Source: Desulfobulbaceae bacterium (GTDB taxonomy: Bacteria; Bacteroidota; Ignavibacteria; Kapaibacteriales; UBA2268). From it: a stretch of 64,000 bases of DNA. The stretch's first letter is position 1. Every line of letters begins with the position of its first letter. The position numbers and the translations under genes were made by a program. Positions 2,820-28,868 of this stretch are shown piece after piece. Where the stretch lies: the NCBI GenBank assembly GCA_018335795.1, contig JAGXRP010000058.1:11520-75519 (forward strand), written 5' to 3'. A model generated the notes under the pieces. It ran no database searches, was not told the origin of the DNA, and worked only from the letters and a program-made list of their open reading frames with translations.

Positions 2820-3974
2820 CTAAACTTCCTTCTTTTCTTTTTTATGAATGTTATGACCACCACGACCCGGTGACCAATTAAAATTTATACTATTTAACTG
2901 TCTGATTTGTTCTTCTGTTAATTGATAATTAAAATGTCCTTTTTTAACTTTCCTTATATAACGCACCCACTCTGATAATTTTCTATTTTCATTCGGAATT
3001 GAAATGTTGCCATTTTCCTCATAAAACTTTTTAAGTAATTTAAAGTTCAATTCCCAATTGTGTTCCTCCCAATGCCATATAAATCCAATTTCATTTAATC
3101 TTCGTTTTTTATCTTCCGGCAATTCACCTCTTTTCGTACGTTGACGATGTACCCAATAATAGAATAATCTGTCTTCGTAATTTACAGGAACATGACAGTG
3201 ACCATACTTATTTTTAAATTCTAACATTTTATTAAAATTTAATTCCCAATCATTCTCGAGAATTGATTCTTTAAGGTTAAAATTAAAATTAATGTTATTG
3301 AGTAATAAAATTTTATCTTTACTCAGCATATTGCGATTATAATACCAAATTTGTTTGCAACACCATCTGTTTAACCGATTCAAACTTTGCCCATTATAGC
3401 CTTGCGTCATATCCCGTTGAACGTAGGCAACACCGTGTTCTTCATAGTAATCTTTCAGCCAACCATACATTTCATCCCATTTATGCCGTTTAATTCCCCA
3501 GTCAAATTCAAGTTCATCAAGAAGTCTAATTCTCTCATCAGAAAGTCTTTTCTTGTGATAGCGCTGTTCTCCGACCCATTTGCCAAGCTTAAAATATTCA
3601 TTATCATATTTTGGAACATTACTATGACCAAATTTATTTTTATAATCTAATAATTCCTCATATCTTCTATGCCAGTAAGTATCAAGTGGTTCAAATAAAA
3701 AACCTGCATCCTGGAGTTGTTTAAATCTCCAGTCTTTCAGCAATCCTCTTCTTGCTTGTACTCTTTGAGTATTTGCCCATCTTGCAATAATTCCTATTTC
3801 GGGAGTAAATCTTGGACTTTCCGGCTCACAAGCTATTCTTTGATGTCCGTTTTTGCGAACAATTTCTTGCCATTTATTTAGTTTTTCTATCCATATTAAA
3901 TCCCATTTTTCATGAAGGGTCAATTCATCAACAGCGTAAACTTTTCGCCTATTTCTTACGACTACTTTAGCCAT
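2820..3974 (-). CDS. Helicase-associated (HA) domain repeat protein (five tandem HA domains), co-operonic with type IIG RM enzyme
   Basis: Five ~65-aa repeats each with W..(F/Y)..L..(F/Y)...GH..VP......LG.WV..QR........L...R...L..(I/L)GF.W signature of PF03457; start codon overlaps stop of upstream gene at 3974. Confidence 0.75.
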   Translation of the reverse strand: MAKVVVRNRRKVYAVDELTLHEKWDLIWIEKLNKWQEIVRKNGHQRIACEPESPRFTPEIGIIARWANTQRVQARRGLLKDWRFKQLQDAGFLFEPLDTYWHRRYEELLDYKNKFGHSNVPKYDNEYFKLGKWVGEQRYHKKRLSDERIRLLDELEFDWGIKRHKWDEMYGWLKDYYEEHGVAYVQRDMTQGYNGQSLNRLNRWCCKQIWYYNRNMLSKDKILLLNNINFNFNLKESILENDWELNFNKMLEFKNKYGHCHVPVNYEDRLFYYWVHRQRTKRGELPEDKKRRLNEIGFIWHWEEHNWELNFKLLKKFYEENGNISIPNENRKLSEWVRYIRKVKKGHFNYQLTEEQIRQLNSINFNWSPGRGGHNIHKKEKKEV

Positions 3975-6900
3975 TATTCTCCCTCCACAATCCTTATTTC
4001 TTCATCGCTCAATTCGTAGAGCTGATAGACGAGTTGGTCTATTGTGCGGTCGGTTTGGTTGATAATTGCTTTGATTTCCTGCGCTTTCGATGTCATTCGG
4101 GTTAGGCGTTCCGACCAGTCTTCTTTGTGTACGCCTTTGAGTTCGATTTTTAGCTTGCGGAGTTCGGCGGTGAAGTCTGCCCAACTGAGTTCGTACCAAT
4201 TTTGCAGTTTGGTGCTTAGTTTTTCGATGCTGAAATCTGCTTTCAGTAGGTCAAGAAATTTATTCTTTACATCCTGCAGCTCTTTATTTTTCTCAAGCAT
4301 AATATCGGCAAGCTCTATGAATGGGACTTGTGCTTCAGGAGATATGTTTGGAATGGGTAATTCTTTACATTGTCCAAGTTTTGCTTTTGGAAAAACATTG
4401 TCGAATTCTGAAAAATTGAATTTAAAGTAATAACCTAATAAAGTTGAATTCAATATTGTAAGAATAAATCTATAATCATAATTTGAATCTTCTGAAATTA
4501 ATTTGCAAACATGAGCAGTATTTTTTGTGGTGTAGTCATCACTTACAAATGTAGCAATAATACCCCTTGTATCAGGTATTTCTCTAATAATTATTCGATC
4601 TCCAATAAAAATATCTTTCTTTCTAGGAGCCGCTAACCATTCACCATATTTAATGTACTCATTCATCCAATCAATTTGATACCTTTTAATATTATTCCCA
4701 GATAGATGTTTCAAATAATCATCAGATATTTTATAATTTGAATTAAATACTTTATTAATTACATCGGATGAGGTTTGTTTTGGAATACCTTTCCCAATCT
4801 CATATTCTTTCAAACCACTATAAAGATTACATATAGAATTTAACTTTATGCTATTTTGATTTACTTTTTCAATTAGCTTTTTTGTTGAGTCATTTTGAAA
4901 TAATTGAAAATCTCCATGTTCTTTGATGTTATCTTGTATAATCTCGGATGATTTAGTAATATTATTATTTATTAGTTCGGATGTCTGAATTATATTATTT
5001 TCAACGTACAACTTTTTAGCTATAATTATTGAATTATCAACCTTAATTCCTTCGAATACTCCCATTGGTAATATTACTAAATCATTAATCGTATGTTCTG
5101 ATAGTATTGATGTTCTAAAATTAACTAATGTTAAATTATTTATCCAAGAGTTTGGAATAATTAACCCAAGAGTTCCATTTAATGATAACAAATCAAATGA
5201 AAGTTTTGTAAATAAAAGGTATAAATCTAATTGATTTTTTTGAAGATTATACTTTAAACTTAAATAATCACTTTGAATTGATATATCTTTATTATCAATA
5301 TTAGTAACATACGGTGGATTGCCAATAACGACATCGAAGCCGCCGGAATATTCTAATTTATCATTTATTTGAGCATCGGCTTGTGCATTATCCTTATTTA
5401 TCAATAAATACAAACGGTCAACTTCATCCATTATAGAATTACACACACCCTCAAAACTGTTCATCACTTCTAAATTATTGAATCTTATAACTTTAATGCC
5501 ATAATGATTTAATATTTCGGAACGGACACTGTCGTATTCAAGCCCCTCATCACTAAAATGCGAATCGCCGTCAATTTCGATTGCCAACTTCACCTCGGCA
5601 ATATAAAAATCAACGATATAATTGTCAATAGTTCTCTGCCTTAAAACTCTGAATTTGAAATCATGCAGAAAGTGATACCAAAGCTTTTTCTCGGGCGCTG
5701 TCATATTTTTCCTCAACTCTTTCGCCCTATCAATGAGTTTCGGATTATACGGCAAATAATATTGCGAATAAAGCAGCCCTCTTTTGATAATCCAATCTTT
5801 CATATGCGCATAAGAATCCCCCTTTAATTCCCCCTTGGAAAGGGGGATTTCGCCCATATCATGATTTAATTCCCCCTTGGGAAGCGGAATTTCGTCCATA
5901 TCTTCATCAAATTCGTCCATATTTTTATTTAATTCCCCCTTGGAAAGGGGGATTTCGCCCATTTCATGATTTAATTCCCCCTTGGGAAGCGGGATTTCGT
6001 CCATATCTTCATCAAATTCGTCCATATTTTGATTTAATTCCCCCTTGGAAAGGGGGTTAGGGGGATATGACTTCTCATCTATTTTGGGATATGCGCCTGA
6101 TTTTGAATTAGAATTATAAGAATCCCCCTTTAATTCCCCCTTGGAAAGGGGGATTTCGCCCATTTCTTGATTTAATTCCCCCTTTTTAAGGGGGTTAGGG
6201 GGATATGACTTCTCATCTATTTTGGGATATGCGCTTAATTTTGAATTCAAATTATAAGAATCCCCCTTTAATTCTCCCTTGGAAAGGGGGATTTCGCCCA
6301 AATAACGATTAAGTTCCCCCTTTTTAAGGGGGTTAGGGGGATATGACTTTTTAACTTTAAACACCTGCGGAAATTCCTTCGCCCAATCAAATGCTTTCTC
6401 GCCTGCTACTTCGGGGTCGTCTATCAGTGAGTTGCCGCATTTGATATTACTTGTGAGCGTGTTTAGTTTTCTGCCTTTTTGTGCAGTCCGCAGCCATAAG
6501 GAAAGTTTTGCGATTTCGACGGATTCTTCATTTATATCCACACCGAATATATTATTTTCGAGTATGTCGGTGGTAATATCGGCAAAAACTAAGCCACCAC
6601 CAAATAGCAATGCCCGCAGTTCATCGAGCTTTCTGTGTTCTTCAATTAAAAATTCGAGCGCCTGATTCAAAAATGCTCCGGAGCCGCAAGCGGGGTCAAG
6701 TATTGTGATGGTAAGTAGCCAGTTGCGATAATTTGTGATTTTTGCGTCGAGTGCAATGATTATGTTTTTATCTTTTTTGGTTCTTTCGATTGCATAATCT
6801 TCGGGGTTGATGCCGAATTGGACGCGTTTTTCAGCACATAATTTACCGACAGTATTTTCAACGATATATTTTGTGATGTATTTGGGAGTATAGTAGATGC

Positions 6901-8017
6901 CGTCTTTTTTGCGTTTGGATTTTTGGGTTTCGACTTTTTCGCCCATGATTTCCGCCTGCACGTTTTCAATTTCACCAAGTGAATGCTCGAAAATATGCCC
7001 GAGAATATTGACATCGACTTCTGTATCGAAATCGTATTGGGATAGTTTCAGGGTATGACTGTATAGGATTTCATCATCAATTGTGATGTTGTCCAAAATT
7101 TCATCTTCAGCGAAAAGCCCGCCATTATAGGCAAAAACCTCCATGTGCTTATTTTTGTATCCGGTGTTCAGGTAGCCGAAATATTTTTTGAATCTGTCGT
7201 AGAGCGGCACGTATTCATCAAGTACATCACGCAGAGTTTCCCAATGATTTATAATTTCCCTGATGGAATTTGGTGGCAGAAGCAGTCGGTCCTCAGCGAA
7301 AAATACGAATAAAAATCGATCGAGAAGTTTTTGCGTCTTCTTGAAAAGCAGAAGTTTGTCGAGCTCGGGATTATTTTTTATCAGATTATTATAAATAGCG
7401 TTGCGGAATTTGGAGTAATCGGCATAAAGCTTTTTGGTAATGTCTTCTTCCTGCAATAGGGAAGATTCCTTGATTTTGAGCGGCACATCATTTAGCAGAT
7501 TATCTTTGCCTAGACAGAGCCACAGCAGAGAAAATTGATTACGCGAAAGATTGAACAAATCAAAATCAATGTAATCAACGGCATTTTGGATATAAAAACG
7601 CAATTTGCCGAAATTTGAAGTGATGACATAAATACATTTTGGATGATGATTTTTGTAGCCGAACGCCTGGGATTCGATAGTGTCAAGGTCGGTAGTGGAG
7701 AGCGATTTCAGTTCGATGACGGCAAGGGCTTCATCACCGCGTAAGATAGCACCGTCGGCTTTGCGGCTGTTGGTGATATTTTTATATTCGGAAATTAGGT
7801 TGTAATCCGGCTCGGGCTGTAGTGTATAGCCCAAAATTTTGACGAATAATTCCCGAAGGAAACCTTCCTGAAATTGTTCTTCTTTGGCAGATTTAATATT
7901 TAGCTGAATCAGCTTATTGCCGAAATATTCCATAAATGCGGAATACTTGACATCAATGAGTGTGGAATCCAACTCATTTAGATATTTTTTCTCAACTGAC
8001 TTTTGAAATAAACTCAT
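3974..8017 (-). CDS. Type IIG restriction-modification fusion enzyme (N-terminal PD-ExK nuclease + Eco57I/MmeI-like gamma-class N6-adenine MTase + TRD) carrying a ~332-aa in-frame insertion
   Basis: N-term ADGAIL...AVIELKS (PD-ExK); MTase motif I ILDPACGSGAFL; NNIFGVDINEESVEIAKLSLWL; CGNSLIDD; FDWAKEFPQVF then insertion then GGFDVVIGNPPYV (motif IV). Confidence 0.75.
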   Translation of the reverse strand: MSLFQKSVEKKYLNELDSTLIDVKYSAFMEYFGNKLIQLNIKSAKEEQFQEGFLRELFVKILGYTLQPEPDYNLISEYKNITNSRKADGAILRGDEALAVIELKSLSTTDLDTIESQAFGYKNHHPKCIYVITSNFGKLRFYIQNAVDYIDFDLFNLSRNQFSLLWLCLGKDNLLNDVPLKIKESSLLQEEDITKKLYADYSKFRNAIYNNLIKNNPELDKLLLFKKTQKLLDRFLFVFFAEDRLLLPPNSIREIINHWETLRDVLDEYVPLYDRFKKYFGYLNTGYKNKHMEVFAYNGGLFAEDEILDNITIDDEILYSHTLKLSQYDFDTEVDVNILGHIFEHSLGEIENVQAEIMGEKVETQKSKRKKDGIYYTPKYITKYIVENTVGKLCAEKRVQFGINPEDYAIERTKKDKNIIIALDAKITNYRNWLLTITILDPACGSGAFLNQALEFLIEEHRKLDELRALLFGGGLVFADITTDILENNIFGVDINEESVEIAKLSLWLRTAQKGRKLNTLTSNIKCGNSLIDDPEVAGEKAFDWAKEFPQVFKVKKSYPPNPLKKGELNRYLGEIPLSKGELKGDSYNLNSKLSAYPKIDEKSYPPNPLKKGELNQEMGEIPLSKGELKGDSYNSNSKSGAYPKIDEKSYPPNPLSKGELNQNMDEFDEDMDEIPLPKGELNHEMGEIPLSKGELNKNMDEFDEDMDEIPLPKGELNHDMGEIPLSKGELKGDSYAHMKDWIIKRGLLYSQYYLPYNPKLIDRAKELRKNMTAPEKKLWYHFLHDFKFRVLRQRTIDNYIVDFYIAEVKLAIEIDGDSHFSDEGLEYDSVRSEILNHYGIKVIRFNNLEVMNSFEGVCNSIMDEVDRLYLLINKDNAQADAQINDKLEYSGGFDVVIGNPPYVTNIDNKDISIQSDYLSLKYNLQKNQLDLYLLFTKLSFDLLSLNGTLGLIIPNSWINNLTLVNFRTSILSEHTINDLVILPMGVFEGIKVDNSIIIAKKLYVENNIIQTSELINNNITKSSEIIQDNIKEHGDFQLFQNDSTKKLIEKVNQNSIKLNSICNLYSGLKEYEIGKGIPKQTSSDVINKVFNSNYKISDDYLKHLSGNNIKRYQIDWMNEYIKYGEWLAAPRKKDIFIGDRIIIREIPDTRGIIATFVSDDYTTKNTAHVCKLISEDSNYDYRFILTILNSTLLGYYFKFNFSEFDNVFPKAKLGQCKELPIPNISPEAQVPFIELADIMLEKNKELQDVKNKFLDLLKADFSIEKLSTKLQNWYELSWADFTAELRKLKIELKGVHKEDWSERLTRMTSKAQEIKAIINQTDRTIDQLVYQLYELSDEEIRIVEGE
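5348..6343 (-). mobile_element. In-frame insertion inside the MTase catalytic domain: complete DUF559 (Vsr-like PD-(D/E)xK endonuclease) unit plus upstream repeat array
   Basis: Inserted segment translates MKDWIIKRGLLYSQYYLPYNPKLIDRAKELRKNMTAPEKKLWYHFLHDFKFRVLRQRTIDNYIVDFYIAEVKLAIEIDGDSHF...GIKVIRFNNLEVMNSFEGV (canonical DUF559 from its own Met). Flanking MTase residues FPQVF and GGFDVVIGNPPY are normally ~10 aa apart in Eco57I-family enzymes. Confidence 0.5.
5805..6343. repeat. Array of nested direct repeats (~138-bp super-unit, 46 codons) built from CCCCC-N7-GGGGG hairpins; in frame within the ORF, encoding PLSKGEL / SYPPNPLKKGEL peptide repeats
   Basis: ttaattcccccttggaaagggggatttcgcccat x5, ttaattcccccttgggaagcgggatttcgtccatatcttcatcaaattcgtccatatt x2, aagggggttagggggatatgactt... 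x3. Confidence 0.85.
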
Positions 8018-8076: not shown

Positions 8077-9270
8077 TTACCGCATGTCTTTTAGTACGAT
8101 TTCGATTTCGTGAGCTAATTTTTTGTTGACTTGGTCGAATGTGCCGCTACCGTCAATTTTGACACCATTATGCAATTTCATGTATTTTGAAATTACGGGG
8201 ACTGTTCTTGTTTCGTGGTCTTGCAAACGTTGGATGATTTTTTCGTAATTGGAATCATAGGGTCGGCTGCCATCGGTTTTGCCACGTACATTTAATCTGC
8301 GAATCAATTCTAAGGTAGGGACTTCGATTTCGATTACTTTTGTGATGGACGATGTGTATTTCTTGAGCAATCCGTCCAGAATATATGATTGAACCAATGT
8401 TCTCGGGAATCCTTTGAAAATGAAACCCTTCATGTCCTGCGATTTAGAGATTTTTTCTTCAATCAATTGGACAACTATTTCATCGGGGACTAATTGACCG
8501 ATTTGGTCGGGGTTTAGAGTGCCACTATCATAAAGCTTTTTAATTTGGATTCCGTATTCAGTTTGCATTTCAACTTCGCTTTCTAACATATCGCCGGCTG
8601 AAAGGTATTCGAGACCGAATTTTTCGGCTAATGCTCTGCCTTGGGCGCTACGTCCCGAGCCCGGATAGCCGAATAGAACGACATTGAGCAAGCTCTTGCT
8701 GAGTTCTTCTTTGACGATTTCGGTGATTTGGTCTTTGACACCTTTGATGTCCAAAAGTCCATTGACCTCTTTGTAATTGCCGCGGTCTTTGAAAAATTTG
8801 AGCACGGGCAACGTTTTTTGGTTGTATTCTTGCAATCGTGTTCGGATTACGCTTTCGTTGTCGTCGGAGCGGCTCGAAGATTTTCCTCTGCCGAGAAGCC
8901 TTTTGACGGATTCTTCTTCAGGCACATCAATGCTGATTAGGCAATTTAGCGAGGTGTTGAGCTTGAGCATCAAGCCTTCGAGTATATAGGCTTGGACGTA
9001 GGTACGCGGGAAGCCGTCGAAAAGAAAGCCGTTGAATGAGGTATTTTCGGTGATTGTCTTTTCAATTATTTGGACTATGATTTCGTCAGAAACCAAGCCG
9101 CCGGACGCGATGACGCTTTTAACTTCTTTGCCGATTGGCGTATCGAGTGAGATTTCATTTCGGAGCAAATCGCCTGTCGAAATGTAGAATAAATTGTATT
9201 TCTTAATTAAATACTCTGACTGTGTTCCTTTCCCTGCACCCGGAGGTCCAAATAGTGCTATGTTCAACAT
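8077..9270 (-). CDS. adk: Tandem-duplicated (fused) adenylate kinase; second domain has degenerate P-loop
   Basis: Domain 1: FGPPGAGKGTQ, LFDGFPRT. Domain 2 directly fused: FGYPGSGRSAQG (Walker-A Lys->Arg, GT->SA), FKGFPRT retained; both short-LID type. Confidence 0.85.
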   Translation of the reverse strand: MLNIALFGPPGAGKGTQSEYLIKKYNLFYISTGDLLRNEISLDTPIGKEVKSVIASGGLVSDEIIVQIIEKTITENTSFNGFLFDGFPRTYVQAYILEGLMLKLNTSLNCLISIDVPEEESVKRLLGRGKSSSRSDDNESVIRTRLQEYNQKTLPVLKFFKDRGNYKEVNGLLDIKGVKDQITEIVKEELSKSLLNVVLFGYPGSGRSAQGRALAEKFGLEYLSAGDMLESEVEMQTEYGIQIKKLYDSGTLNPDQIGQLVPDEIVVQLIEEKISKSQDMKGFIFKGFPRTLVQSYILDGLLKKYTSSITKVIEIEVPTLELIRRLNVRGKTDGSRPYDSNYEKIIQRLQDHETRTVPVISKYMKLHNGVKIDGSGTFDQVNKKLAHEIEIVLKDMR

Positions 9271-9356: not shown

Positions 9357-9770
9357 CTACATCTTCATCGTCAAAGTCAGTATATTCTGTCCATGTGAAC
9401 GGCGATAAGTAATTGAATCGCAAAGTTTTTTCACAATGAAGATTCCCAAACCACCGACGGTTCGTTCTTCCAATGGTGCTTCGACGTTTGGTGATTCGCG
9501 GTCGAGCGGATTAAATTCGATTCCGCTATCGATAATTACTATTGTCATAGTGTTATTTTCGTATTTGATATATATATCTATTTCGCCACTTTCGTGCTTT
9601 GGGTATCCGTAGTTTATAATGTTTGTGACAAGTTCGTCAAGGCACAAAGACAGATTGTATGCGACTTTTGGAGCTAATTCGGCTTGCTCGGCAAAAGTTT
9701 CTAATTCCGAAGCCAAGGTACGGAGTTCGGAGATTTCGTTTTTCAGTTTTATGTCTAAGTTCAATTTCAT
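9357..9770 (-). CDS. Anti-sigma regulatory factor, HATPase_c Ser-kinase (RsbW/SpoIIAB-like)
   Basis: 137 aa; LDELVTNIINYGY...IDSGIEFNP...GGLGIFIVKKL motifs of GHKL anti-sigma kinases. Confidence 0.7.
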   Translation of the reverse strand: MKLNLDIKLKNEISELRTLASELETFAEQAELAPKVAYNLSLCLDELVTNIINYGYPKHESGEIDIYIKYENNTMTIVIIDSGIEFNPLDRESPNVEAPLEERTVGGLGIFIVKKLCDSITYRRSHGQNILTLTMKM

Positions 9771-9845: not shown

Positions 9846-10193
9846 TTGGAGTCAGAAATGAATATTGTTTTTTCTAGTGAAAACGAAATTAATATAGCAA
9901 AGTTATCCGGCAGAATTGACACGACAAATTCTGACGAGGTTCAAAGTGAATTGCTCGGCAAAATCAATTCGGGAGCTACGAAATTAGCGATTGATTTCTC
10001 GGAAGTAACTTATATCAGCAGCGCCGGATTGAGAGCTATTCTCGCGTCAGTCAAGGAAATCACGAAGAAAGAAGGCAAACTTGCGATTTTTTCGATGCAA
10101 GACAATATTAAGGATGTTTTCGATATGTCCGGATTTTCGGCAATTATGAATATATTGCCCGATTATAATTCAATAAAAGAATTCATGAAATAA
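9846..10193 (+). CDS. STAS-domain anti-sigma factor antagonist (SpoIIAA/RsbV-like)
   Basis: 115 aa; FSEVTYISSAGLRAIL with phosphorylatable Ser in the DxSxVxxIDSSGL position. Confidence 0.75.
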   Translation: MESEMNIVFSSENEINIAKLSGRIDTTNSDEVQSELLGKINSGATKLAIDFSEVTYISSAGLRAILASVKEITKKEGKLAIFSMQDNIKDVFDMSGFSAIMNILPDYNSIKEFMK

Positions 10194-10204: not shown

Positions 10205-10816
10205 ATGAGTAATATTTATGAATTTGACGGCTACATTCCGGTAATTGACGAATCTGCATTTGTGCATCCGCAAGCGAATGTAACGGGGAATGTTATCATC
10301 GGGAAAAATGTTTATATCGGTCCCGGTGCATCGGTGCGTGGTGATTGGGGACAAATTATCATCGAAGATGATTGCAATGTGCAGGAAAATTGTGTTATTC
10401 ACATGTTCCCGGGAGTCACCGTAGTGCTGGAAAGCAAGGCTCATATTGGTCATGGAGCTATCATTCATGGGGCGCGCATTTGCCGGAATTCGCTGGTTGG
10501 AATGAATGCTGTCGTGATGGACGGAGCTGTCGTCGGAGCTGAATCCATCGTTGGAGCCTTATGTTTTGTTCCCGCAGATATGATTATTCCGGAACGTAAA
10601 ATCGTTGTGGGCAATCCGGCAAAAATCGTGAAAGATATTGTGCCTGATATGGTAGATTGGAAAACAGAAGGCACTGAGCTTTACGTCGGGCTGCCACAAG
10701 ATTGCAGAGATTCTCTTCGCCCTTGTGAGCCGCTGCGGCAAGTGCCGGCGAATCGCCCTCCGATGAAATCGGATTATAAGACTTGGAAGGAATATATTGC
10801 TTCTAAAGGTAAATGA
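10205..10816 (+). CDS. Gamma-carbonic-anhydrase / PaaY-like hexapeptide-repeat (LbH) protein
   Basis: 203 aa; left-handed beta-helix hexapeptide repeats and conserved His ligands (HIGHGAIIHGARI). Confidence 0.7.
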   Translation: MSNIYEFDGYIPVIDESAFVHPQANVTGNVIIGKNVYIGPGASVRGDWGQIIIEDDCNVQENCVIHMFPGVTVVLESKAHIGHGAIIHGARICRNSLVGMNAVVMDGAVVGAESIVGALCFVPADMIIPERKIVVGNPAKIVKDIVPDMVDWKTEGTELYVGLPQDCRDSLRPCEPLRQVPANRPPMKSDYKTWKEYIASKGK

Positions 10817-20837: not shown

Positions 20838-23800
20838 ATGAAACGATTGATTCGTTTGAGTTTTTTGGTGGTACTATTGGGCATCCTGTCATACGGATAC
20901 GCTCAGTCAAACCAAGTTTACGTATCCGGTTCTATTGAGCCGGGTCAAGTAAGGGTTTTCATGAAAGACTCTGTTTACATATTCAATAAGGATTACACTG
21001 TAAACGGAACTCTTATAATAGAACCCGGAACAACACTCTACATGCATCCCAATGGCAGATTGATTGTCGCCGCAGGCGGCAGAGTTTTAGCCGATGGGCT
21101 TGCAAAAGCTTCTTATACTGAAAGACCGGGTGGTTTAAATCCGGTTTTGACATATGAGCCGCTTGGTCACGCCAGCTACGAGTATTTCTTCTACAATGCT
21201 GTTGACCAATACAATGACAACTCTGGTGCTGCTCGCACTATCAGAGTTGAATCACCTAAGGACCCGACGGTCCACATGGATAAGTATAATCATATTTTCC
21301 ATGTATTGTTGAATAAATCAACAAGGCAGATAGTTGATATTGCTGACCCCAGCAGTAGCAATTACCCAAGATTCCGTAATTCTGCGGCTCAAAATAATTC
21401 GAATCACATCGTACTATCGTACGAGCAAGCATTGATGTATCAAGCTGCACGTTTGAATTTTGACCCGGAAACTTACGATCCAAATCTTAAAACTATGCCT
21501 TGGAGAAGAGTTGGCGGTAAAGTCGCTACTATCGCTCCCGCAACGATTAAATTCATCGGTCAAGCATTTGATATGTCCCGTGAATGGGGTCATATTATAG
21601 TTTTACCAGGTGCAAGAGCTGCTTTCTTCAGAAATGTAGAATTTGAATCATTCAAAAAAGATACTACTGTTGATAGAGTTCCGCTTTATCCGGGTGGTGC
21701 TTCAACTGCTCTTAACATGAGAATGAAACAATTAACTAATGGTGCAGGTGGTGCTCTTACTACTTTCTCATCAAGAACTTGGTTGATTGATTGTAAATTT
21801 TCTAATAACATGGCTCGTCTTCGTGGCGGTGCTCTAAACATTTTGTCCTCACCTATCGAACTTGCTTCTACTTTTAACGGAAGCACTCAAGGTTTGGGCT
21901 ATTATCCTGCTACTAAAAACCCACACATAACAAATCCTGATGGTACTCCTTCTATTATTAATACTCAAAATCCAATTTTGAGAATTGATAATGTTGACGA
22001 AAATATGAATTTGGCTGAACCTTGGGGAAGCAATAACGCAACTTATCGTCAAGCTTTTGATGATGGTCGTTTAGCTCTTTTCTTAGGAAGAATGCGTAAC
22101 CTTGAATTTGACAATAACATGGTTCAATTAGCGAATGTTAGAGTTGAAATGCAAGATGGTCGCCAAATTACTCGTGACGTAACTGATGAACCTGCTAACT
22201 ATCCAATGCAAGCAGGCAATCATGCTTATGGTGGTGCGATTTACATTTCGGGTATGCCTGAATATAAAGAAAGACAAATTGAAGTTGCTTTAGGTTTCAA
22301 CAATAGCATTAATATCGGTGGCGAAGTTGTATTCTTTGATACCCCCGATACATTCATTGCAAAAAATAACTCTTCAAGAAACTTCCAACAGTCAATGAAT
22401 TCACATGGTGCTCGCGGTGGTGCTTTATACATTGCAAACTACACTTCTATGATTGTTGCAGGTGAATATACTGAAAATAACACATATGCTAAGTATTTCG
22501 AAGATGACTCATTATTCGGTGTTACTTCTGCAGGTTACTCACAAGGTGGCGCGATTTTCATGGAAAACACTCTTGCAAGACTTCAAGTAAGAGGTGGTCC
22601 TTCTCGTGAAAACGTCAACGAAACTTATTTCACAGGTAACAAATCAGCTGCCGGTGGAGCAATTTTTGTTGATGGTAATACTTCAGCTCATCCTTCACCT
22701 ATCGTTGGTGGTTCGGATGCGAAACTTGAAACAAGAGATTATGGCTTCGATATTAAATTCGAAGGCAATATGGCTTTGACTCATGGCGGTGCAATTCTCA
22801 CTAAGAGAAATATGTCTGTTAATGGCTCAGGTGGTGTTGAAGCAAATGCTTTATTAGGTTATGATGGTAAATATACTGTCAGATTCTGGAATAATACAGC
22901 CGGTTTCTCCGGTGGTGCGATTGACATCAGAATACCTAATGCAATTCCTCCGGTTCCTCCAATTAAGAGAGTTGTTTCTCTTATCCGTGCAGAATTCATT
23001 GGCAACGTTGTCGGTGAAGGTATGGAAGGCGATAACATTACTCAAATTCGTGGTGGTGGTGCAGTTTATTCATTCAATGGCGAATTAAACGTTATCAAAG
23101 GTGTTGACTTTTTGAACAACACTGTATATAATGGTAATGGTGGTGCGGTATCTTTGGTTAATCTGCAAGATGAAGCTTCAAAACGCTATTTCCTTACTGA
23201 CTTAGATGAAATTCATTATCAAAACGGTTTACCTGTTGGCTATCATTCAAATGATGATGCATTTACAGGTGCTGACCAAACTTTCCCGGCTGACGTCAGA
23301 ATGTTAACAAGATTCATTGACAATAAAGTCGTTCTTGATACTGAAAATGAGCTTGTACAAGCTCAAATGGGTACAGGAACAACTCAAGTTGGTCAAGGCA
23401 CTCCTGTTACTACTTTAGATTTGTTAGCAACAAAATGGGTTACTAATACTACCGGTTATGCTGTTGGTATGAATGGTGTAGCTATTAAATTTACAAATAG
23501 CGGTGACAATTGGCAATACTTAAACACAGGTGTTCCATTTAGATTCACTACAGTTGCATTTACTTCAGAAATGGTTGGCTACTTTGGTGGCGACCGTGGT
23601 ATTATCGTTAAAACTATTGACGGTGGTGCTACTTTCCAAATGCTAAATACAAATACTGACAAGAGAATCAATGACGTATTCTTTGTAGGTTCAAACGTTG
23701 GTTATGCAGTTTGTGATGATGGTTACATCTTAAGAACTGTTAATGCCGGCGCTACTTGGTCTGTTACAAAACCTGGTATCCTTGATTTGAAGAGCGTATT

Positions 23801-26800
23801 CTTTGTTTCTACAAATGTCGGTTTCGCAGTTGGTAACAATGCTGAAGTTTTAAGAACTTCTGATGGCGTTACTTGGGAATTTATTGACTTAGCAGGAACA
23901 TACCAAGATTTGAATTCAGTTCATTTTGTTAATTCAAATAAAGGCTTTATCTTAGGTCAAAACGGTACATTCTTAGTAACTGAAAATGCAGGTAATACTT
24001 GGAATTTGGTTGACTTTGGTATCATGAATCACTTGAAAGATATTACTTTCATTGGTCAAACTAACGGCTATATGATTGGTACAGGCGGTTTGGCTTGGAA
24101 ATCAGTTGACGGTGGTACTAATTGGACTCCAATGGTTACTAATACTGAATTGAACTATCATGGACTTAGCTTCCCAACTCCAAATGTTGGTTATATTGTC
24201 GGCGATGCCGGATTGGTATTAAGAACTATGGATGCCGGTGCAAACTGGACTAAAGCTAATCCTACAAATATGAGCTTTACAGACGTAAAACGTTACAACC
24301 TTGATTCATGGTTACCAGAAAATGGTATTGGTCTTGGTGGTGCTCTTTATATTCTTGATAGCGTTTCATCTTCTAAAATTGGAAGAATTGATTCAGTTAA
24401 CTTTAACCGTGTTAGAATTCAAGATAACATGGCTTATTCAGGTTCTGCAATCTATTCAGATAACTATGATTTGAAACTTATCTTAACTCGTTCATTGGTA
24501 ACAGGCAATAATGCTTATTCAATGGTTGGAATGGAACAAAATGTCATCACAGGTGCTCTTTCAAGAGACAACGGTGGTAATATTAACTTTAACGAAGCAT
24601 CATCAGACCTCGTAGGTACTACGATTTATGGTGAAGTTCAAGGTCCATTGCCCGCTTATACATATTCAGAAGCCGCAAATAGTATTTACAACAATAATGC
24701 AAGATTCTTGATTAGATTGCCTGATGCACCGAATTCAAAAGGTATATTGGCAGGTACTACAGGTCTTGGTTATGGTGGTACTGATACATTACGCGGTAAC
24801 TTCTGGGGTGCTACTGAAGCAAATGTTCATTTTACTTTGCCTCATATGCAACAAAATCCTCAATTTGCAAGAATGGAAACTTTCTTCGTTTCAGGCGATG
24901 GCAATACTTGGTTACAATTCTTATACCCTGAATTGATTAATCCAAATCCTGCTGACCCAAGACAAAAAGGTCCATTTGAATCAATTGCAAGAGGCGACGT
25001 TATGTACGTTCCTATAGTATTGAAAAATGAAGCCGGAACACAAAATACACATGACGCAATGAGTATTCCTGAAAAATTACTCATGTCAGGTCACGTTTAT
25101 GATTTATACGACAAAAACACTGACATTAAAACTGCTGATTATTCAAACAGAAGAATGAGCCCAATTGAAGACTTTGCTGTAGGTATTCCACCTAAGTTAA
25201 GAACTTTCGATAACGTTAACCAACCTTCATATGGTAAGGTAATCAAACGTTGGACTCGCGATCCATTTATTGCAGAAGCAAGAGATGAATCAAACAACTT
25301 GAAATATCCTGGTATTGCTGCACTTCTTACAGAATTCAAACCTGATATGAATGGTGTAAACTATCATCCAATCGGTTATCCTCTGTATCTTGAAGCAAGA
25401 GCTAACTATGAAGATTTAACAAGAAGAAGCAATCATGACCCGAGATTATTGAACCATACAGTTTACTTTGTAATCAACTTGAATACAGGTGACTATGTTC
25501 GTGCTAATCTCGAACAAGTAAGTGAAAATGCTCCTCATAGAGAAACTTTCAGAGCTACAATCGAAATGATTCCTGACTCTTCAGAAAGACGCGACCCAAC
25601 TTGGAGACGTTCTTCAGAAGGTTTGGCTAACTTAGGTTCAGGTCCTGAATTGTTAAAGAGACTATACTTAGACCCATATGATGAAGATTTCGGTGTCCTC
25701 CAAGGTCGTCGTTATACAGCACAAACTCACAGATTACTCGGTAGAGTTCCTGATTTATTCAGCAACCGCCCGGGTATGCCTGCATCAAACTTAATTGGTT
25801 CAGAATCAAGAACTACTTACTTTGGTGGCGAAAGATATCGTTCATTACCGGTAAGAGTTGGTGACTCAGTACAAATCGTTTCAAGAACTATTCTCTGGAG
25901 AGAAGGCGTTCATGAAGCAGCTTTGAAAGGAACTGCATTCAGAATCGTAGAATCAACAGTACCTCCTGTATTTACAGGCGATATCGTGAAATTACAAACT
26001 GACACTATTTTCAAAATGCTTCCATCTTATGATAACCCTGATGTTAAAGAAGAAGTTGTTATTACTGAATTCTTAAACAAAGTGTTTGTTACTGAAGATA
26101 GACCTTATCCTGTTGATTTCCGTACTTATAGCGGATTAGACGTCGAAGGCGACCCTGCTATGGAAATTGCTGGTGGACGTGGAAGAGACTCAATCTTAAA
26201 TATTACTGCAGTTGACACTAATAGATTCTGGGATCCAAGATTTTTGGAAGATCCGGCTAACTATTCACAATTAGGCTATAGAATTGAGCTTGAACCAAAT
26301 TCAGGTTTAAAACATTGGTTAGTTGTTAATAGAAAATCAGCTTCGTCACCAGTAAAAGATGGTGCGTATGGTTACTTAGAATTAGCAGGTCGTCCAATCA
26401 ATCCGTTCGTAGTACCAGGCGGAGAATGGGTCAGAGTTTACTCTGATAATTATCCTCCTCATTACAGAACGCTTGATTCATTGTTAGCTTTCCAACCGCC
26501 GTTAGATGCAGATGTGATTGCACAATATATCGAATCATTCCCTGCATATATGCATGCTGAAATGTACGATATTGCAAATGCAAGATACTTGCAACAAGAT
26601 ACAATTAACGTAGGTCCAAGATATACTAATTCATACCAATTCCATATCTTTGTTGTTGATAGCGTCCCCAGATTCTTGGAAGATGGAGATGGCGGTATTG
26701 AAACAATCTACAGAATTGATAAACCAAATGAAGTATATGTAGATTACGTACCTTCAGTATATCCTTGTGGAACTGATAGAGAAGATAGATTGCTTGCAAA

Positions 26801-28868
26801 CTTAACTGATAAGCTTAGATTCCAAATTGATATAAATACTGACGACGAATTAGAAGACCATTCTCCTGCAGCTGCAGGTTGGGATTTCCGTTATGGTAGA
26901 ACATCTTATGGATATATAAGCAAGGCTATACGCATGAACCCGGCAGATTCAGCCATATTTGATGAAATTGAATATGAAGGTGACTTTGAATGGGTAGAAG
27001 GCGTTTACTTAGTTCAATCAAGACCTCAATGGATGGATGCTAAATATATGTATCTATACGACAGTGAAACTGATTCAGATGCTTTTGGTACTGATTTCAC
27101 TGCTTTTGGTAAGATCAATATCAGAATTCCTGCAGACGAAGCATTAGAAATGATTACGCCTGATCCTCAATATCATGGCGCATTCCATACTGATACTATA
27201 TTCACAATCGTAGTTAATGACGGTCATAGTGGTATTGCCTCAAAACAATATAATGTAATGATAAATATTGTTCCGACTATCGTAACAAATTCGTTACCTG
27301 CTGCTATTGAAGATAGAGATTACAATCCAACTTTGTTAGATCAAACTCGTAGAATTGTAGTTACTGATCCTAACTTCGGACAAAAACATACTTACAAGTT
27401 GATTTATGTTAATACTCCTGAAAATTCAATTCCAATTGACCCTTGCTTTGAAGATGCAGGAAATATTGATTTGACTGATAAGAAGACGACTCCACTTTGG
27501 TTGAAAATTAATCCAAATACAGGCGTATTGTATGGAACTCCAAGAGTAAAAGATGCACCTAAAGATGTATTAGTTACTGTAGTTGTAACAGACGAAAACG
27601 GGCTTTCAACTTATGCTCAAATTCCTCTTACAGTCCAAGGTGTTTCTCATAATCCTTACATAACCGGTGTCCCTGAAGTAGATTGTATTTATCCAAATCT
27701 ACCATGGAGTACTAAGATGACTATATATGATATTGACTTACTAAGAACTAATCCTGCTGAAACAATAACAATTAAATTATTGAATTCTGAAGGCTTACCA
27801 TTGCAAGGATTTACAGTAACTCCAAGTACCTACTCAGGTAATGGGACTACTGATAATTTTGAAATTACAATTTCAAAAACAGGCAATATTCAACCTGATG
27901 CAGATGGTAAAGTTACTATAAAAGTTATTGTTGAAGATATATTTGGTAATAAGTTTGAAAAAATCTTCAAGTTGCACGTATCACTCGAAACTAACTTCAT
28001 TGCTTCGGTAAGAGTAGAAAACGTTAATGGTGCATACCAAGATTTGACTTTTGGTACTTCAAGCATACCCGGTACTTCGACAGGCGATGGAAACGATGGT
28101 GAATATGTTGGTAAACTTGACGCAGAACTTTGCGAATATGAATTACCACCTGTCCCATTTGCTGACGTATTTGACTCAAGATGGGAAATTGCAAACAGAC
28201 AGGGTGTTCATACAAACATCTTCCCAACTGCAATTAGCAACAATAATAGAGTATATATTTATAAAGCTAAATTCCAAGCAGGCGGTCTCGCAGGCGGAAC
28301 ATCAGCACTATATCCTGTTAAGATTTCTTGGGACCCGAACCAAATCCCTGCTCTCAATGATGTTACTAAGAATCCTGCGGGTTCTTCATGGCACTTAAGA
28401 GACAGATTCTCTGATGGTAATCTCTTTACTTTCAATATGAGAGACCCAATGCAAAACTATTACACAAGTTCCGTTCAATTCGCAATGATTGATGGTAAAG
28501 CTGTTGTAACTGTGACTGACAATGCTATTGATGGTTTTGTAATTATGCACGACTGGACTAACTCTGTTATAGAAGTTAATCCTAATGCAAGCGCAACTCG
28601 TATCGTTAGCGTTTCACCTAATCCGGTCAACGAAAACACTACAATCGAATTCGAATTGCTTAATAGCGGTAATGTAACCATTCAATTGGTTGACCTTATC
28701 GGTAATGAGTTGATGACACTTACTAACGATGTTATGACAAGCGGTACATACCAAATTAATTGGGATGGTAATTTAACTGACGGTAACAAAATCTCAAGCG
28801 GTCAATACATGCTTAGATTAGTTTCAGGTAAAGCTACCAGCGTTTATCCGATTGTAATAGTTAAATAA
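20838..28868 (+). CDS. Giant (2676 aa) T9SS cargo: polymorphic-membrane-protein-like beta-helix repeats + Ycf48/BNR-like beta-propeller + C-terminal sorting domain
   Basis: Signal peptide; repeated GGA(I/L/V)(Y/F) Pmp-type motifs; seven blades of G..(N/T)W...(D/N) propeller (~res 870-1110); C-terminal NPVNENTTIEF...GQYMLRLVSG CTD. Confidence 0.75.
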   Translation: MKRLIRLSFLVVLLGILSYGYAQSNQVYVSGSIEPGQVRVFMKDSVYIFNKDYTVNGTLIIEPGTTLYMHPNGRLIVAAGGRVLADGLAKASYTERPGGLNPVLTYEPLGHASYEYFFYNAVDQYNDNSGAARTIRVESPKDPTVHMDKYNHIFHVLLNKSTRQIVDIADPSSSNYPRFRNSAAQNNSNHIVLSYEQALMYQAARLNFDPETYDPNLKTMPWRRVGGKVATIAPATIKFIGQAFDMSREWGHIIVLPGARAAFFRNVEFESFKKDTTVDRVPLYPGGASTALNMRMKQLTNGAGGALTTFSSRTWLIDCKFSNNMARLRGGALNILSSPIELASTFNGSTQGLGYYPATKNPHITNPDGTPSIINTQNPILRIDNVDENMNLAEPWGSNNATYRQAFDDGRLALFLGRMRNLEFDNNMVQLANVRVEMQDGRQITRDVTDEPANYPMQAGNHAYGGAIYISGMPEYKERQIEVALGFNNSINIGGEVVFFDTPDTFIAKNNSSRNFQQSMNSHGARGGALYIANYTSMIVAGEYTENNTYAKYFEDDSLFGVTSAGYSQGGAIFMENTLARLQVRGGPSRENVNETYFTGNKSAAGGAIFVDGNTSAHPSPIVGGSDAKLETRDYGFDIKFEGNMALTHGGAILTKRNMSVNGSGGVEANALLGYDGKYTVRFWNNTAGFSGGAIDIRIPNAIPPVPPIKRVVSLIRAEFIGNVVGEGMEGDNITQIRGGGAVYSFNGELNVIKGVDFLNNTVYNGNGGAVSLVNLQDEASKRYFLTDLDEIHYQNGLPVGYHSNDDAFTGADQTFPADVRMLTRFIDNKVVLDTENELVQAQMGTGTTQVGQGTPVTTLDLLATKWVTNTTGYAVGMNGVAIKFTNSGDNWQYLNTGVPFRFTTVAFTSEMVGYFGGDRGIIVKTIDGGATFQMLNTNTDKRINDVFFVGSNVGYAVCDDGYILRTVNAGATWSVTKPGILDLKSVFFVSTNVGFAVGNNAEVLRTSDGVTWEFIDLAGTYQDLNSVHFVNSNKGFILGQNGTFLVTENAGNTWNLVDFGIMNHLKDITFIGQTNGYMIGTGGLAWKSVDGGTNWTPMVTNTELNYHGLSFPTPNVGYIVGDAGLVLRTMDAGANWTKANPTNMSFTDVKRYNLDSWLPENGIGLGGALYILDSVSSSKIGRIDSVNFNRVRIQDNMAYSGSAIYSDNYDLKLILTRSLVTGNNAYSMVGMEQNVITGALSRDNGGNINFNEASSDLVGTTIYGEVQGPLPAYTYSEAANSIYNNNARFLIRLPDAPNSKGILAGTTGLGYGGTDTLRGNFWGATEANVHFTLPHMQQNPQFARMETFFVSGDGNTWLQFLYPELINPNPADPRQKGPFESIARGDVMYVPIVLKNEAGTQNTHDAMSIPEKLLMSGHVYDLYDKNTDIKTADYSNRRMSPIEDFAVGIPPKLRTFDNVNQPSYGKVIKRWTRDPFIAEARDESNNLKYPGIAALLTEFKPDMNGVNYHPIGYPLYLEARANYEDLTRRSNHDPRLLNHTVYFVINLNTGDYVRANLEQVSENAPHRETFRATIEMIPDSSERRDPTWRRSSEGLANLGSGPELLKRLYLDPYDEDFGVLQGRRYTAQTHRLLGRVPDLFSNRPGMPASNLIGSESRTTYFGGERYRSLPVRVGDSVQIVSRTILWREGVHEAALKGTAFRIVESTVPPVFTGDIVKLQTDTIFKMLPSYDNPDVKEEVVITEFLNKVFVTEDRPYPVDFRTYSGLDVEGDPAMEIAGGRGRDSILNITAVDTNRFWDPRFLEDPANYSQLGYRIELEPNSGLKHWLVVNRKSASSPVKDGAYGYLELAGRPINPFVVPGGEWVRVYSDNYPPHYRTLDSLLAFQPPLDADVIAQYIESFPAYMHAEMYDIANARYLQQDTINVGPRYTNSYQFHIFVVDSVPRFLEDGDGGIETIYRIDKPNEVYVDYVPSVYPCGTDREDRLLANLTDKLRFQIDINTDDELEDHSPAAAGWDFRYGRTSYGYISKAIRMNPADSAIFDEIEYEGDFEWVEGVYLVQSRPQWMDAKYMYLYDSETDSDAFGTDFTAFGKINIRIPADEALEMITPDPQYHGAFHTDTIFTIVVNDGHSGIASKQYNVMINIVPTIVTNSLPAAIEDRDYNPTLLDQTRRIVVTDPNFGQKHTYKLIYVNTPENSIPIDPCFEDAGNIDLTDKKTTPLWLKINPNTGVLYGTPRVKDAPKDVLVTVVVTDENGLSTYAQIPLTVQGVSHNPYITGVPEVDCIYPNLPWSTKMTIYDIDLLRTNPAETITIKLLNSEGLPLQGFTVTPSTYSGNGTTDNFEITISKTGNIQPDADGKVTIKVIVEDIFGNKFEKIFKLHVSLETNFIASVRVENVNGAYQDLTFGTSSIPGTSTGDGNDGEYVGKLDAELCEYELPPVPFADVFDSRWEIANRQGVHTNIFPTAISNNNRVYIYKAKFQAGGLAGGTSALYPVKISWDPNQIPALNDVTKNPAGSSWHLRDRFSDGNLFTFNMRDPMQNYYTSSVQFAMIDGKAVVTVTDNAIDGFVIMHDWTNSVIEVNPNASATRIVSVSPNPVNENTTIEFELLNSGNVTIQLVDLIGNELMTLTNDVMTSGTYQINWDGNLTDGNKISSGQYMLRLVSGKATSVYPIVIVK

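Follow-up and report, generated by a model that had tools for sequence, protein, structure and literature searches.

A 64-kb stretch of contig JAGXRP010000058.1 (hereafter the window, meaning the whole of the DNA analyzed) carries on its reverse strand an adk gene whose product contains two adenylate kinase (Adk) domains in one chain. The original prediction had described a single open reading frame (ORF) of 397 amino acids (aa) with two such domains, and both the translation and the Pfam assignment agree with it: the protein matches ADK (PF00406) over two stretches (E = 7e-85, 283 bits in total), and the domain search found no domains other than ADK/AAA-type ones. The reading frame is open across the domain junction, without a stop codon or a frameshift, so that the fusion stands, and the two predicted P-loop motifs, one canonical and one degenerate, are both present (Table 1). 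Domains 1 and 2 share 38% identity over their full length (E = 8e-45). The protein is deposited in public databases, where the exact match is named “adenylate kinase” (MBS4000822.1), and no further ADK-like sequence was found in the window.

The linker between the domains is very short, and the pattern ELSK[SRK]L[FL]N[IV]V is kept at this place throughout the alignment of the tandem family. An AlphaFold2 model based on a 125-sequence alignment shows two confident Adk folds, with a mean predicted local distance difference test (pLDDT) score of 85.3 and values mostly between 85 and 95 in domain 2. In this model, helix 175-191 of domain 1 runs nearly straight into strand 195-201 of domain 2. The pLDDT is reduced at an insertion of eight residues in domain 2, which is confined to a subgroup of 397-aa proteins from Kapabacteria and is missing from relatives of 389 aa. 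In a comparison with structures of the PDB, the single halves match ordinary Adks with a target-normalized TM-score of ~0.9, while the sole two-domain matches are two multi-AK proteins (AK, adenylate kinase) of the axoneme of bovine sperm, 9fqr_G8 and 9fqr_Xf. A promoter and terminator scan at the tandem gene returned nothing beyond shuffled expectation.

Table 1. Position of the tandem adenylate kinase gene, its parts and its upstream neighbors in the window.
Feature	Position	Strand	Remarks
Tandem adenylate kinase ORF, complete, 397 aa	8077-9270	-	ATG start; stop codon 8077-8079
Domain 1, canonical short-LID adenylate kinase, aa 1-190	8701-9270	-	NCBIfam NF001381, residue alignment
P-loop of domain 1, GPPGAGKGT, aa 8-16	9223-9249	-	
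Linker SKSL, aa 191-194	8689-8700	-	Last helix of domain 1 to first strand of domain 2
Domain 2, diverged adenylate kinase fold (R-type), aa 195-397	8080-8688	-	Pfam ADK, pLDDT, tree, dN/dS
Degenerate P-loop of domain 2, GYPGSGRSA, aa 201-209	8644-8670	-	Arg207 codon CGT, nt 8650-8652
Glu230, at the Arg36 (AMP-phosphate-binding) position of domain 2	8581-8583	-	
FIFKGFPRT, nucleoside monophosphate (NMP)-site motif of domain 2, aa 283-291	8398-8424	-	Lys286 nt 8413-8415; Arg88 equivalent kept
Insertion of eight residues, ~aa 250-257 within SGTLNPDQIG, NMP-binding subdomain of domain 2	8500-8523	-	
RsbW-like HATPase_c_2 gene, co-directional, upstream	9357-9770	-	Pfam; 86 bp from the adk start
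STAS (anti-sigma antagonist) gene, divergent	9846-10193	+	
Hexapeptide-repeat gene	10205-10816	+	

Catalytic residues of the two domains

Domain 1 has the properties of a canonical bacterial enzyme. It scores 214.3 bits against the adenylate kinase equivalog model NF001381 of NCBIfam (cut-off 187), and its best sequence matches in the PDB are the short-LID bacterial Adks 3cm0 and 8pvw. Residue equivalences were taken from an alignment to a short-LID variant of the Escherichia coli enzyme and are given in E. coli numbering. By this alignment, the equivalents of K13, R36, D84, R88, Q92, R119, R123, R156, D158, D159, and R167 are all present in domain 1, including the five catalytic arginines R36, R88, R123, R156, and R167 (PMC11313852). 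The same eleven positions are invariant in 76 of 76 family members. The signature that contains Asp84, for which we used PROSITE pattern PS00113, [LIVMFYWCA]-[LIVMFYW](2)-D-G-[FYI]-P-R-x(3)-[NQ], is matched by domain 1 with FLFDGFPRTYVQ. In sequence, catalytic residues and predicted fold, domain 1 thus corresponds to the short-LID bacterial Adks (EC 2.7.4.3), as exemplified by the enzyme of Thermus thermophilus (3cm0), that of Mycobacterium tuberculosis (2cdn) and the short E. coli variant (8pvw), all of which differ from the window protein in that the latter combines two domains in one chain.

Domain 2 has the fold of these enzymes and their two nucleotide pockets but lacks K13, R36, D84, and D159, and its LID loop is two residues longer than the canonical one. 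Its NF001381 score of 156.2 bits lies under the cut-off, so that the equivalog test is passed by domain 1 only. The P-loop glycines, R88, Q92, R119, R123, D158, and R167 are kept and are invariant across the family; indeed, conservation in domain 2 peaks precisely at the columns in contact with nucleotides (the P-loop glycines, R290, Q294, R325, R329, and R348). The degeneration of the second P-loop, which had been proposed from the window sequence, extends to all relatives of the same class: the K13 position is occupied by Arg in all 52 genome-derived R-type proteins, the class to which the window protein belongs, and in each of the 120 best database homologs. Walker A mutants in which Lys is exchanged for Arg usually retain nucleotide binding and lose turnover. 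At the R36 position, 43 of the 52 R-type proteins carry an acidic residue (Asp in 22, Glu in 21) and four carry Lys, the window protein reading Glu230, whereas Arg is found in 21 of 22 proteins of the sister class, the K-type. At the D84 position, Lys is common to all three classes of the family (R-, K-, and C-type), and Lys286 is invariant in 125 aligned homologs. The pattern used for the genome scan contained GFIFKG, which biases the Lys84 count there, and an unbiased protein search gave the same Lys. Domain 2 does not match the Asp84 signature, reading FIFKGFPRTLVQ with Lys for Asp. The GFPRT sequence reported by the original prediction does occur in both halves, but in domain 2 it is not an intact motif, as the preceding D84 is replaced by Lys (FIFKGFPRT).

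Further positions are less uniform. Across R-type proteins, domain 2 shows variation or loss at the positions of D33 and D159; in the window protein, Asp227 is still found at the former and Ser is aligned with the latter. Most R-type proteins read CMPYD, without an Arg, around the R156 position, while the window protein reads SRPYD, in which the equivalent residue is ambiguous. With respect to the catalytic arginines, domain 2 of the window protein therefore keeps R88, R123, and R167, has Glu for R36 and is ambiguous for R156. It is also atypical in two ways that are both rare in the family: the Arg of the P-loop is followed by Ser-Ala (RSA) where the family has Gly-Ser/Thr, and there is no hydroxyl group at the T31 position (SAGD).

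The cost of such losses is known from E. coli Adk, in which the turnover number (kcat) falls from 305 to 0.06 s-1 in the K13Q mutant and to 19 s-1 in R36A (PMC5028032). Exchange of Asp84, which anchors Mg2+, for Ala reduces kcat from 330 to 1.8 s-1, and the ordered Mg2+ is lost (PMC11313852). The exchange of D84 for Lys and of R36 for Glu and the altered LID were overlooked in the original prediction; these changes weigh at least as much as the exchange of Lys for Arg in the P-loop.

Distribution, phylogeny and selection

Tandem genes of this kind are widespread. A scan of 185,579 species-representative genomes (one per GTDB species), using patterns derived from the domain 2 alignment, confirmed at least 579 loci, and the 80 best of these were retained. 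The view that tandem Adk fusions are uncommon in bacteria consequently holds in relative terms only, as they occur in several phyla, and the conservation of the fusion in related genomes, which had been suggested as a check, was confirmed by the presence of domain 1 directly upstream and in frame at every locus whose contig allows this to be seen. Hosts are found, among other groups, in Bacteroidales, including cultured Labilibaculum, Ancylomarina, and Carboxylicivirga, as well as Ignavibacteriota/Kapabacteria, Verrucomicrobiota and Kiritimatiellae, Spirochaetota, Acidobacteriota, Krumholzibacteriia, Fermentibacteraceae and, in one case, a metagenome-assembled genome (MAG) of Oligoflexales. 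The family member of Labilibaculum filiforme (WP_101261874.1 / A0A2N3HVX1) is carried as “adenylate kinase.” A search of a representative library, in which matches were ranked by summed score, was dominated by eukaryote-like proteins with multiple AK domains and added little on family size.

Three classes can be distinguished among the best 80 loci by the P-loop of domain 2, namely the R-type with GYPGSGRGS (52 loci and three more counted as partial), the K-type with GxPGSGKGT (22 loci and one partial) and the C-type with GYPGAGCGT (two loci). The window protein shows the features that define the R-type, i.e., an ADK-ADK arrangement in an ORF of ~385-400 aa, GYPGxGR and FIFKG[FY]PRT. K-type proteins, for example those of Ancylomarina euxinus (WP_125031550.1) and Marinifilum (locus L062), have the same architecture at ~389 aa, the same linker and the same exchange of D84 for Lys in domain 2. 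However, they retain Lys13, Arg36, and the LID Arg that R-type proteins have lost, and the two classes share only ~52% identity.

In neighbor-joining trees, all domain 1 sequences form one clade and all domain 2 sequences another, and the two trees are congruent, the K-type and the R-type (together with the C-type) being reciprocally monophyletic in both halves. These congruent clades indicate one ancient fusion followed by a split into sister classes. In both trees, the window protein lies inside the R-type clade beside a Kapaibacterium protein (L012). Monophyly of domain 2 was recovered in 100 of 100 bootstraps when 35 stand-alone Adks were added; domains 1 and 2 also grouped together, but their strict monophyly was recovered in only 7 of 100. 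The trees are thus compatible with both an internal duplication and a fusion of two different adk genes as the origin of domain 2. Intermediate states exist as well, since basal R-type proteins have Lys at the R36 position and the C-type keeps R36. The two C-type loci, from a Krumholzibacteriia MAG (L054, 9428-10597) and an unclassified bacterial MAG (L057, 2179-3348), have Cys at the position of Lys13 next to the retained Arg36, and their products nest among basal R-type proteins.

R-type proteins of different phyla are 75-80% identical, compared with 52% between an R-type and a K-type protein within one genome. This high identity between phyla suggests that strongly constrained genes have spread horizontally. 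Single MAG contigs placed in the wrong bin could not account for all of it, because ten loci of Verrucomicrobiota, four of Acidobacteriota and three of Spirochaetota are involved. One Marinifilum chromosome and one Bacteroidales MAG hold both types, so the R-type gene can be an additional paralog. The window protein itself was deposited under a MAG labeled “Desulfobulbaceae bacterium.” This label is probably a binning error, because the relative with 97% identity is labeled Kapabacteria, the tree neighbor is a Kapaibacterium and the window encodes several proteins with the Por_Secre_tail domain of the type IX secretion system (T9SS).

Among 5.8 billion proteins searched, each of the 120 best homologs is a double ADK with 67-97% identity; their lengths are 387-412 aa, except for two partial sequences of 315-316 aa. 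The mean frequency of the top residue per alignment column is 0.845 for domain 2 versus 0.884 for domain 1. Ratios of nonsynonymous to synonymous substitution rates (dN/dS; Nei-Gojobori method, 20 sequence pairs with mostly saturated synonymous sites) range from 0.02 to 0.21 for domain 2 and from 0.00 to 0.22 for domain 1. For the closest relative, with 97% aa identity, dN is 0 in domain 1 and 0.039 in domain 2 at a dS of 0.66. On these comparisons, the degenerate second P-loop is a fixed and selected feature. A search with domain 2 alone returned many proteins of 190-230 aa, including P0266, a K-type-like protein of 202 aa. Three candidates for a stand-alone domain 2 were rejected: P0211 results from a wrongly called gene start within an intact fusion (L085), L017 is an intact fusion that had been missed by the P-loop pattern, and L033 contains a single in-frame stop on a contig with 1.9x coverage.

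Polypeptides with several AK domains are also known from eukaryotes, such as AK5, AK8, AK9 and the axonemal or radial-spoke AKs. In flagellar radial spokes, AK8 with two and AK9 with four catalytic domains are anchored (PMC12680740). In contrast to these proteins, to which it shows ~18% identity, the window protein comes from a bacterial host, has one degenerate domain and lacks docking domains; judged by such comparison rather than by phylogeny, its origin looks like an independent one. A bacterial protein of 401 aa from a high-GC organism (P0278) likewise comprises two ADK domains in ~400 aa. Unlike in the window protein, both of its halves are canonical, with GxPGAGKGT and [LV]LDGYPR, and it appears to represent an independent bacterial duplication without degeneration. 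No account of bacterial tandem Adks or of this degenerate second domain was found in full-text literature searches, and AK8 and AK9 of eukaryotes are the nearest described analogs.

Possible roles of the second domain

We lean modestly toward the interpretation that domain 1 is a working kinase to which a nucleotide-binding but catalytically crippled domain 2 has been added as a regulatory or pseudo-kinase module. In this model, domain 1 would act as the ATP:AMP phosphotransferase, while domain 2 would still bind adenine nucleotides but transfer phosphate very poorly or not at all, and would serve in cis as a nucleotide-sensing module. Ligands would drive this module to open and close, and the motion would be coupled to domain 1 via the rigid helix-to-strand junction. 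Nucleotide binding is suggested by the conserved pocket residues and crippled catalysis by the joint loss of three to four catalytic groups together with the charge reversal at R36; in combination, the two point to a regulatory or sensing pseudo-kinase. The original prediction had offered this role next to an altered specificity. The substitution pattern favors the former, and the latter is without support because Gln92, which determines AMP specificity, is invariant in domain 2. With regard to evolution, the K-type branch of the ancient fusion would have become the housekeeping adk of some Bacteroidales, while the R-type branch would have undergone stepwise degeneration and spread between phyla by horizontal transfer.

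Several points weigh against the pseudo-kinase interpretation. It is sequence-based for every member of the family. Domain 2 may have residual or unconventional activity, since an Arg side chain is still able to bind phosphates and Lys286 might make up for the loss of Lys13 or of Mg2+. In the ancestor, domain 2 may have been an active enzyme, given that K-type second domains retain K13, R36, R88, R123, and R167. Coupling between the domains is conjectural, and the predicted template modeling score of the AlphaFold2 model, only 0.58, means that it does not fix with confidence how the two domains are oriented toward each other. Finally, no conserved operon was found around R-type genes, and they have no common neighbors that would hint at a regulatory circuit.

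The main rival interpretation, to which we assign a clearly smaller though still appreciable probability, is that both domains are active and that the site of domain 2 has been rewired: its P-loop would use Arg207, and Lys286 would neutralize charge in place of Lys13 and/or Mg2+. Such a site might be Mg2+-independent or tuned to another donor or acceptor. The conservation of both nucleotide pockets, with R88, Q92, R119, R123, R167 and the P-loop glycines all invariant, would be expected of an active enzyme, as would purifying selection as strong as that on a working one. The invariance of Lys in place of D84 in R-, K-, and C-type proteins resembles a designed replacement rather than decay, and the K-type sister occupies the housekeeping slot with K13, R36, and the LID Arg in place. 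However, R-type proteins have jointly lost K13, R36, D84 and usually R156, each single loss of which in E. coli costs 16- to 5000-fold in kcat. An acidic residue at the R36 position would repel the AMP phosphate, and the related C-type clade tolerates Cys at the K13 position. We know of no precedent for a Mg2+-independent Adk, and the literature searches found none. Rewiring agrees well with an invariant Lys286 and with a K-type site that is nearly intact, but it is a poor fit to the R-type.

It is rather improbable that domain 2 has lost nucleotide binding and is purely structural, acting as a scaffold for stability, oligomerization or partner docking. The loss of catalytic residues is consistent with such a role, and the window copy additionally lacks the hydroxyl groups at T15 and T31 (RSA and SAGD). 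R-type genes adjoin ATP-synthase genes in two lineages, which could hint at docking. Yet the best-conserved columns of domain 2 are nucleotide contacts, which are hard to explain without a ligand, and there is no conserved partner gene. That the fusion is an assembly or frameshift artifact, or domain 2 a recent duplicate decaying into a pseudogene, is next to impossible: apart from being conceivable a priori, this is favored only by database entries that resemble stand-alone halves, whereas hundreds of assemblies, obtained independently and from several phyla, share the in-frame layout, and the strong purifying selection on domain 2, with dN/dS far below 1, contradicts recent inactivation. Neither of the two findings named in the original prediction as refuting it, an interrupted junction and a recent inactive duplicate, was thus made.

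A bolder interpretation, which we regard as speculative and improbable, is that domain 2 might be a new nucleotide sensor with an Adk fold for Mg2+-free or highly charged ligands that allosterically gates the fused Adk. The exchange of D84 for Lys and the loss of D33 and D159 would create an electropositive site, and free ADP or ATP, diadenosine polyphosphates and (p)ppGpp/(p)ppApp are examples of conceivable ligands. In the K-type, Lys84 could then stand in for Mg2+ and yield a metal-independent phosphotransferase. If this were true, a portable “energy-charge governor” would be what lies behind the family being so strongly conserved and shared between phyla.

Adenylate kinase is a textbook model of catalysis and domain motion and normally consists of a single essential domain in bacteria. 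The tandem family can be viewed as a natural “mutant,” in which a second Adk domain with K13R, R36D/E and D84K has been fixed under purifying selection and exchanged between phyla. K-type, basal R-type, C-type and crown R-type proteins form a graded series of an enzyme domain turning into something else. Should domain 2 be a nucleotide sensor, it would provide a simple bacterial case of a pseudo-enzyme that regulates its catalytic twin, and it might show how cells monitor free Mg2+ or the adenylate energy charge. The annotation as “adenylate kinase” masks both the two-domain architecture and the degenerate domain. We consider the significance of these findings moderate; it lies mainly in the experiment that nature has carried out on a model enzyme and in a candidate bacterial pseudo-enzyme regulator.

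Genomic neighborhood

The position hpt-adk-obg is the customary one of adk in Bacteroidetes. K-type genes largely follow it, with hpt located immediately upstream in 16 of 22 loci and obg also downstream in 13 of them. In contrast, none of the 52 R-type loci shows adjacency to hpt or obg, and the gene of the window is flanked by the RsbW-like gene and a restriction-methylase gene. Three Bacteroidales loci (L063, 9428-11228; L073, 5006-6946; L079, 9416-11103) have the order hpt, K-type tandem adk, stand-alone adk of 194 aa and obg, and thereby three successive ADK domains.

The neighbors of R-type genes are lineage-specific. A group resembling Lentimicrobiaceae carries atpA-atpG-ferritin, which lie upstream of and co-directional with the R-type adk in L002, L007, and L015. 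In Kapabacteria, the neighbors are the STAS and RsbW-like genes, and these hold their position, together with the hexapeptide-repeat gene, in three of three close relatives (L081, L083, and L084). This synteny is absent from other R-type lineages, and the genes downstream of the tandem adk differ among the window and its relatives. No terminator was found between the RsbW-like gene and the tandem adk. Partner-switching kinases respond to ATP/ADP, and a local functional link between the tandem adk and the RsbW-like and STAS genes is conceivable. In the Kapabacteria relative L081 (7445-13194), F1Fo ATP-synthase genes are convergent with the R-type gene; the adjacency to ATP-synthase genes in two separate lineages could be due to chance.

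A link to anti-phage defense or to phages was rejected: PADLOC gave only weak, short matches to the P-loop (E of at least 4e-4), PHROGs matched domain 1 (aa 3-189) to phrog_255 (“exonuclease”) with 49 bits (E = 7.5e-13) and gave nothing specific for domain 2, and no match in IMG/VR was confirmed.

Downstream of the tandem gene, the reverse strand encodes an Eco57I/MmeI-type restriction-methylase of 1347 aa (3974-8017), with an embedded DUF559 (Vsr-like endonuclease) domain at aa 762-866. In-frame tandem DNA repeats (5823-6349) with periods of 42, 63, 105, and 138 bp lie upstream of DUF559 in the ORF and encode IPLSKGELKGDSY / SYPPNPLKKGELN peptides. At the corresponding position, all that L084, the relative with 97% identity, carries is a gene for a protein of 490 aa with N6_Mtase/Eco57I/TaqI_C domains, indicating that the region is variable. 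The restriction-methylase gene is followed, with an overlap of 1 bp, by a gene on the same strand (2820-3974) for a protein of 384 aa with five Helicase-associated (HA, PF03457) repeats. Elsewhere in the window, the forward strand contains an ORF of 2676 aa (20838-28868) that combines BNR/Sortilin-like, Chlam_PMP, He_PIG, and FlgD_ig domains and ends in a T9SS sorting tail.

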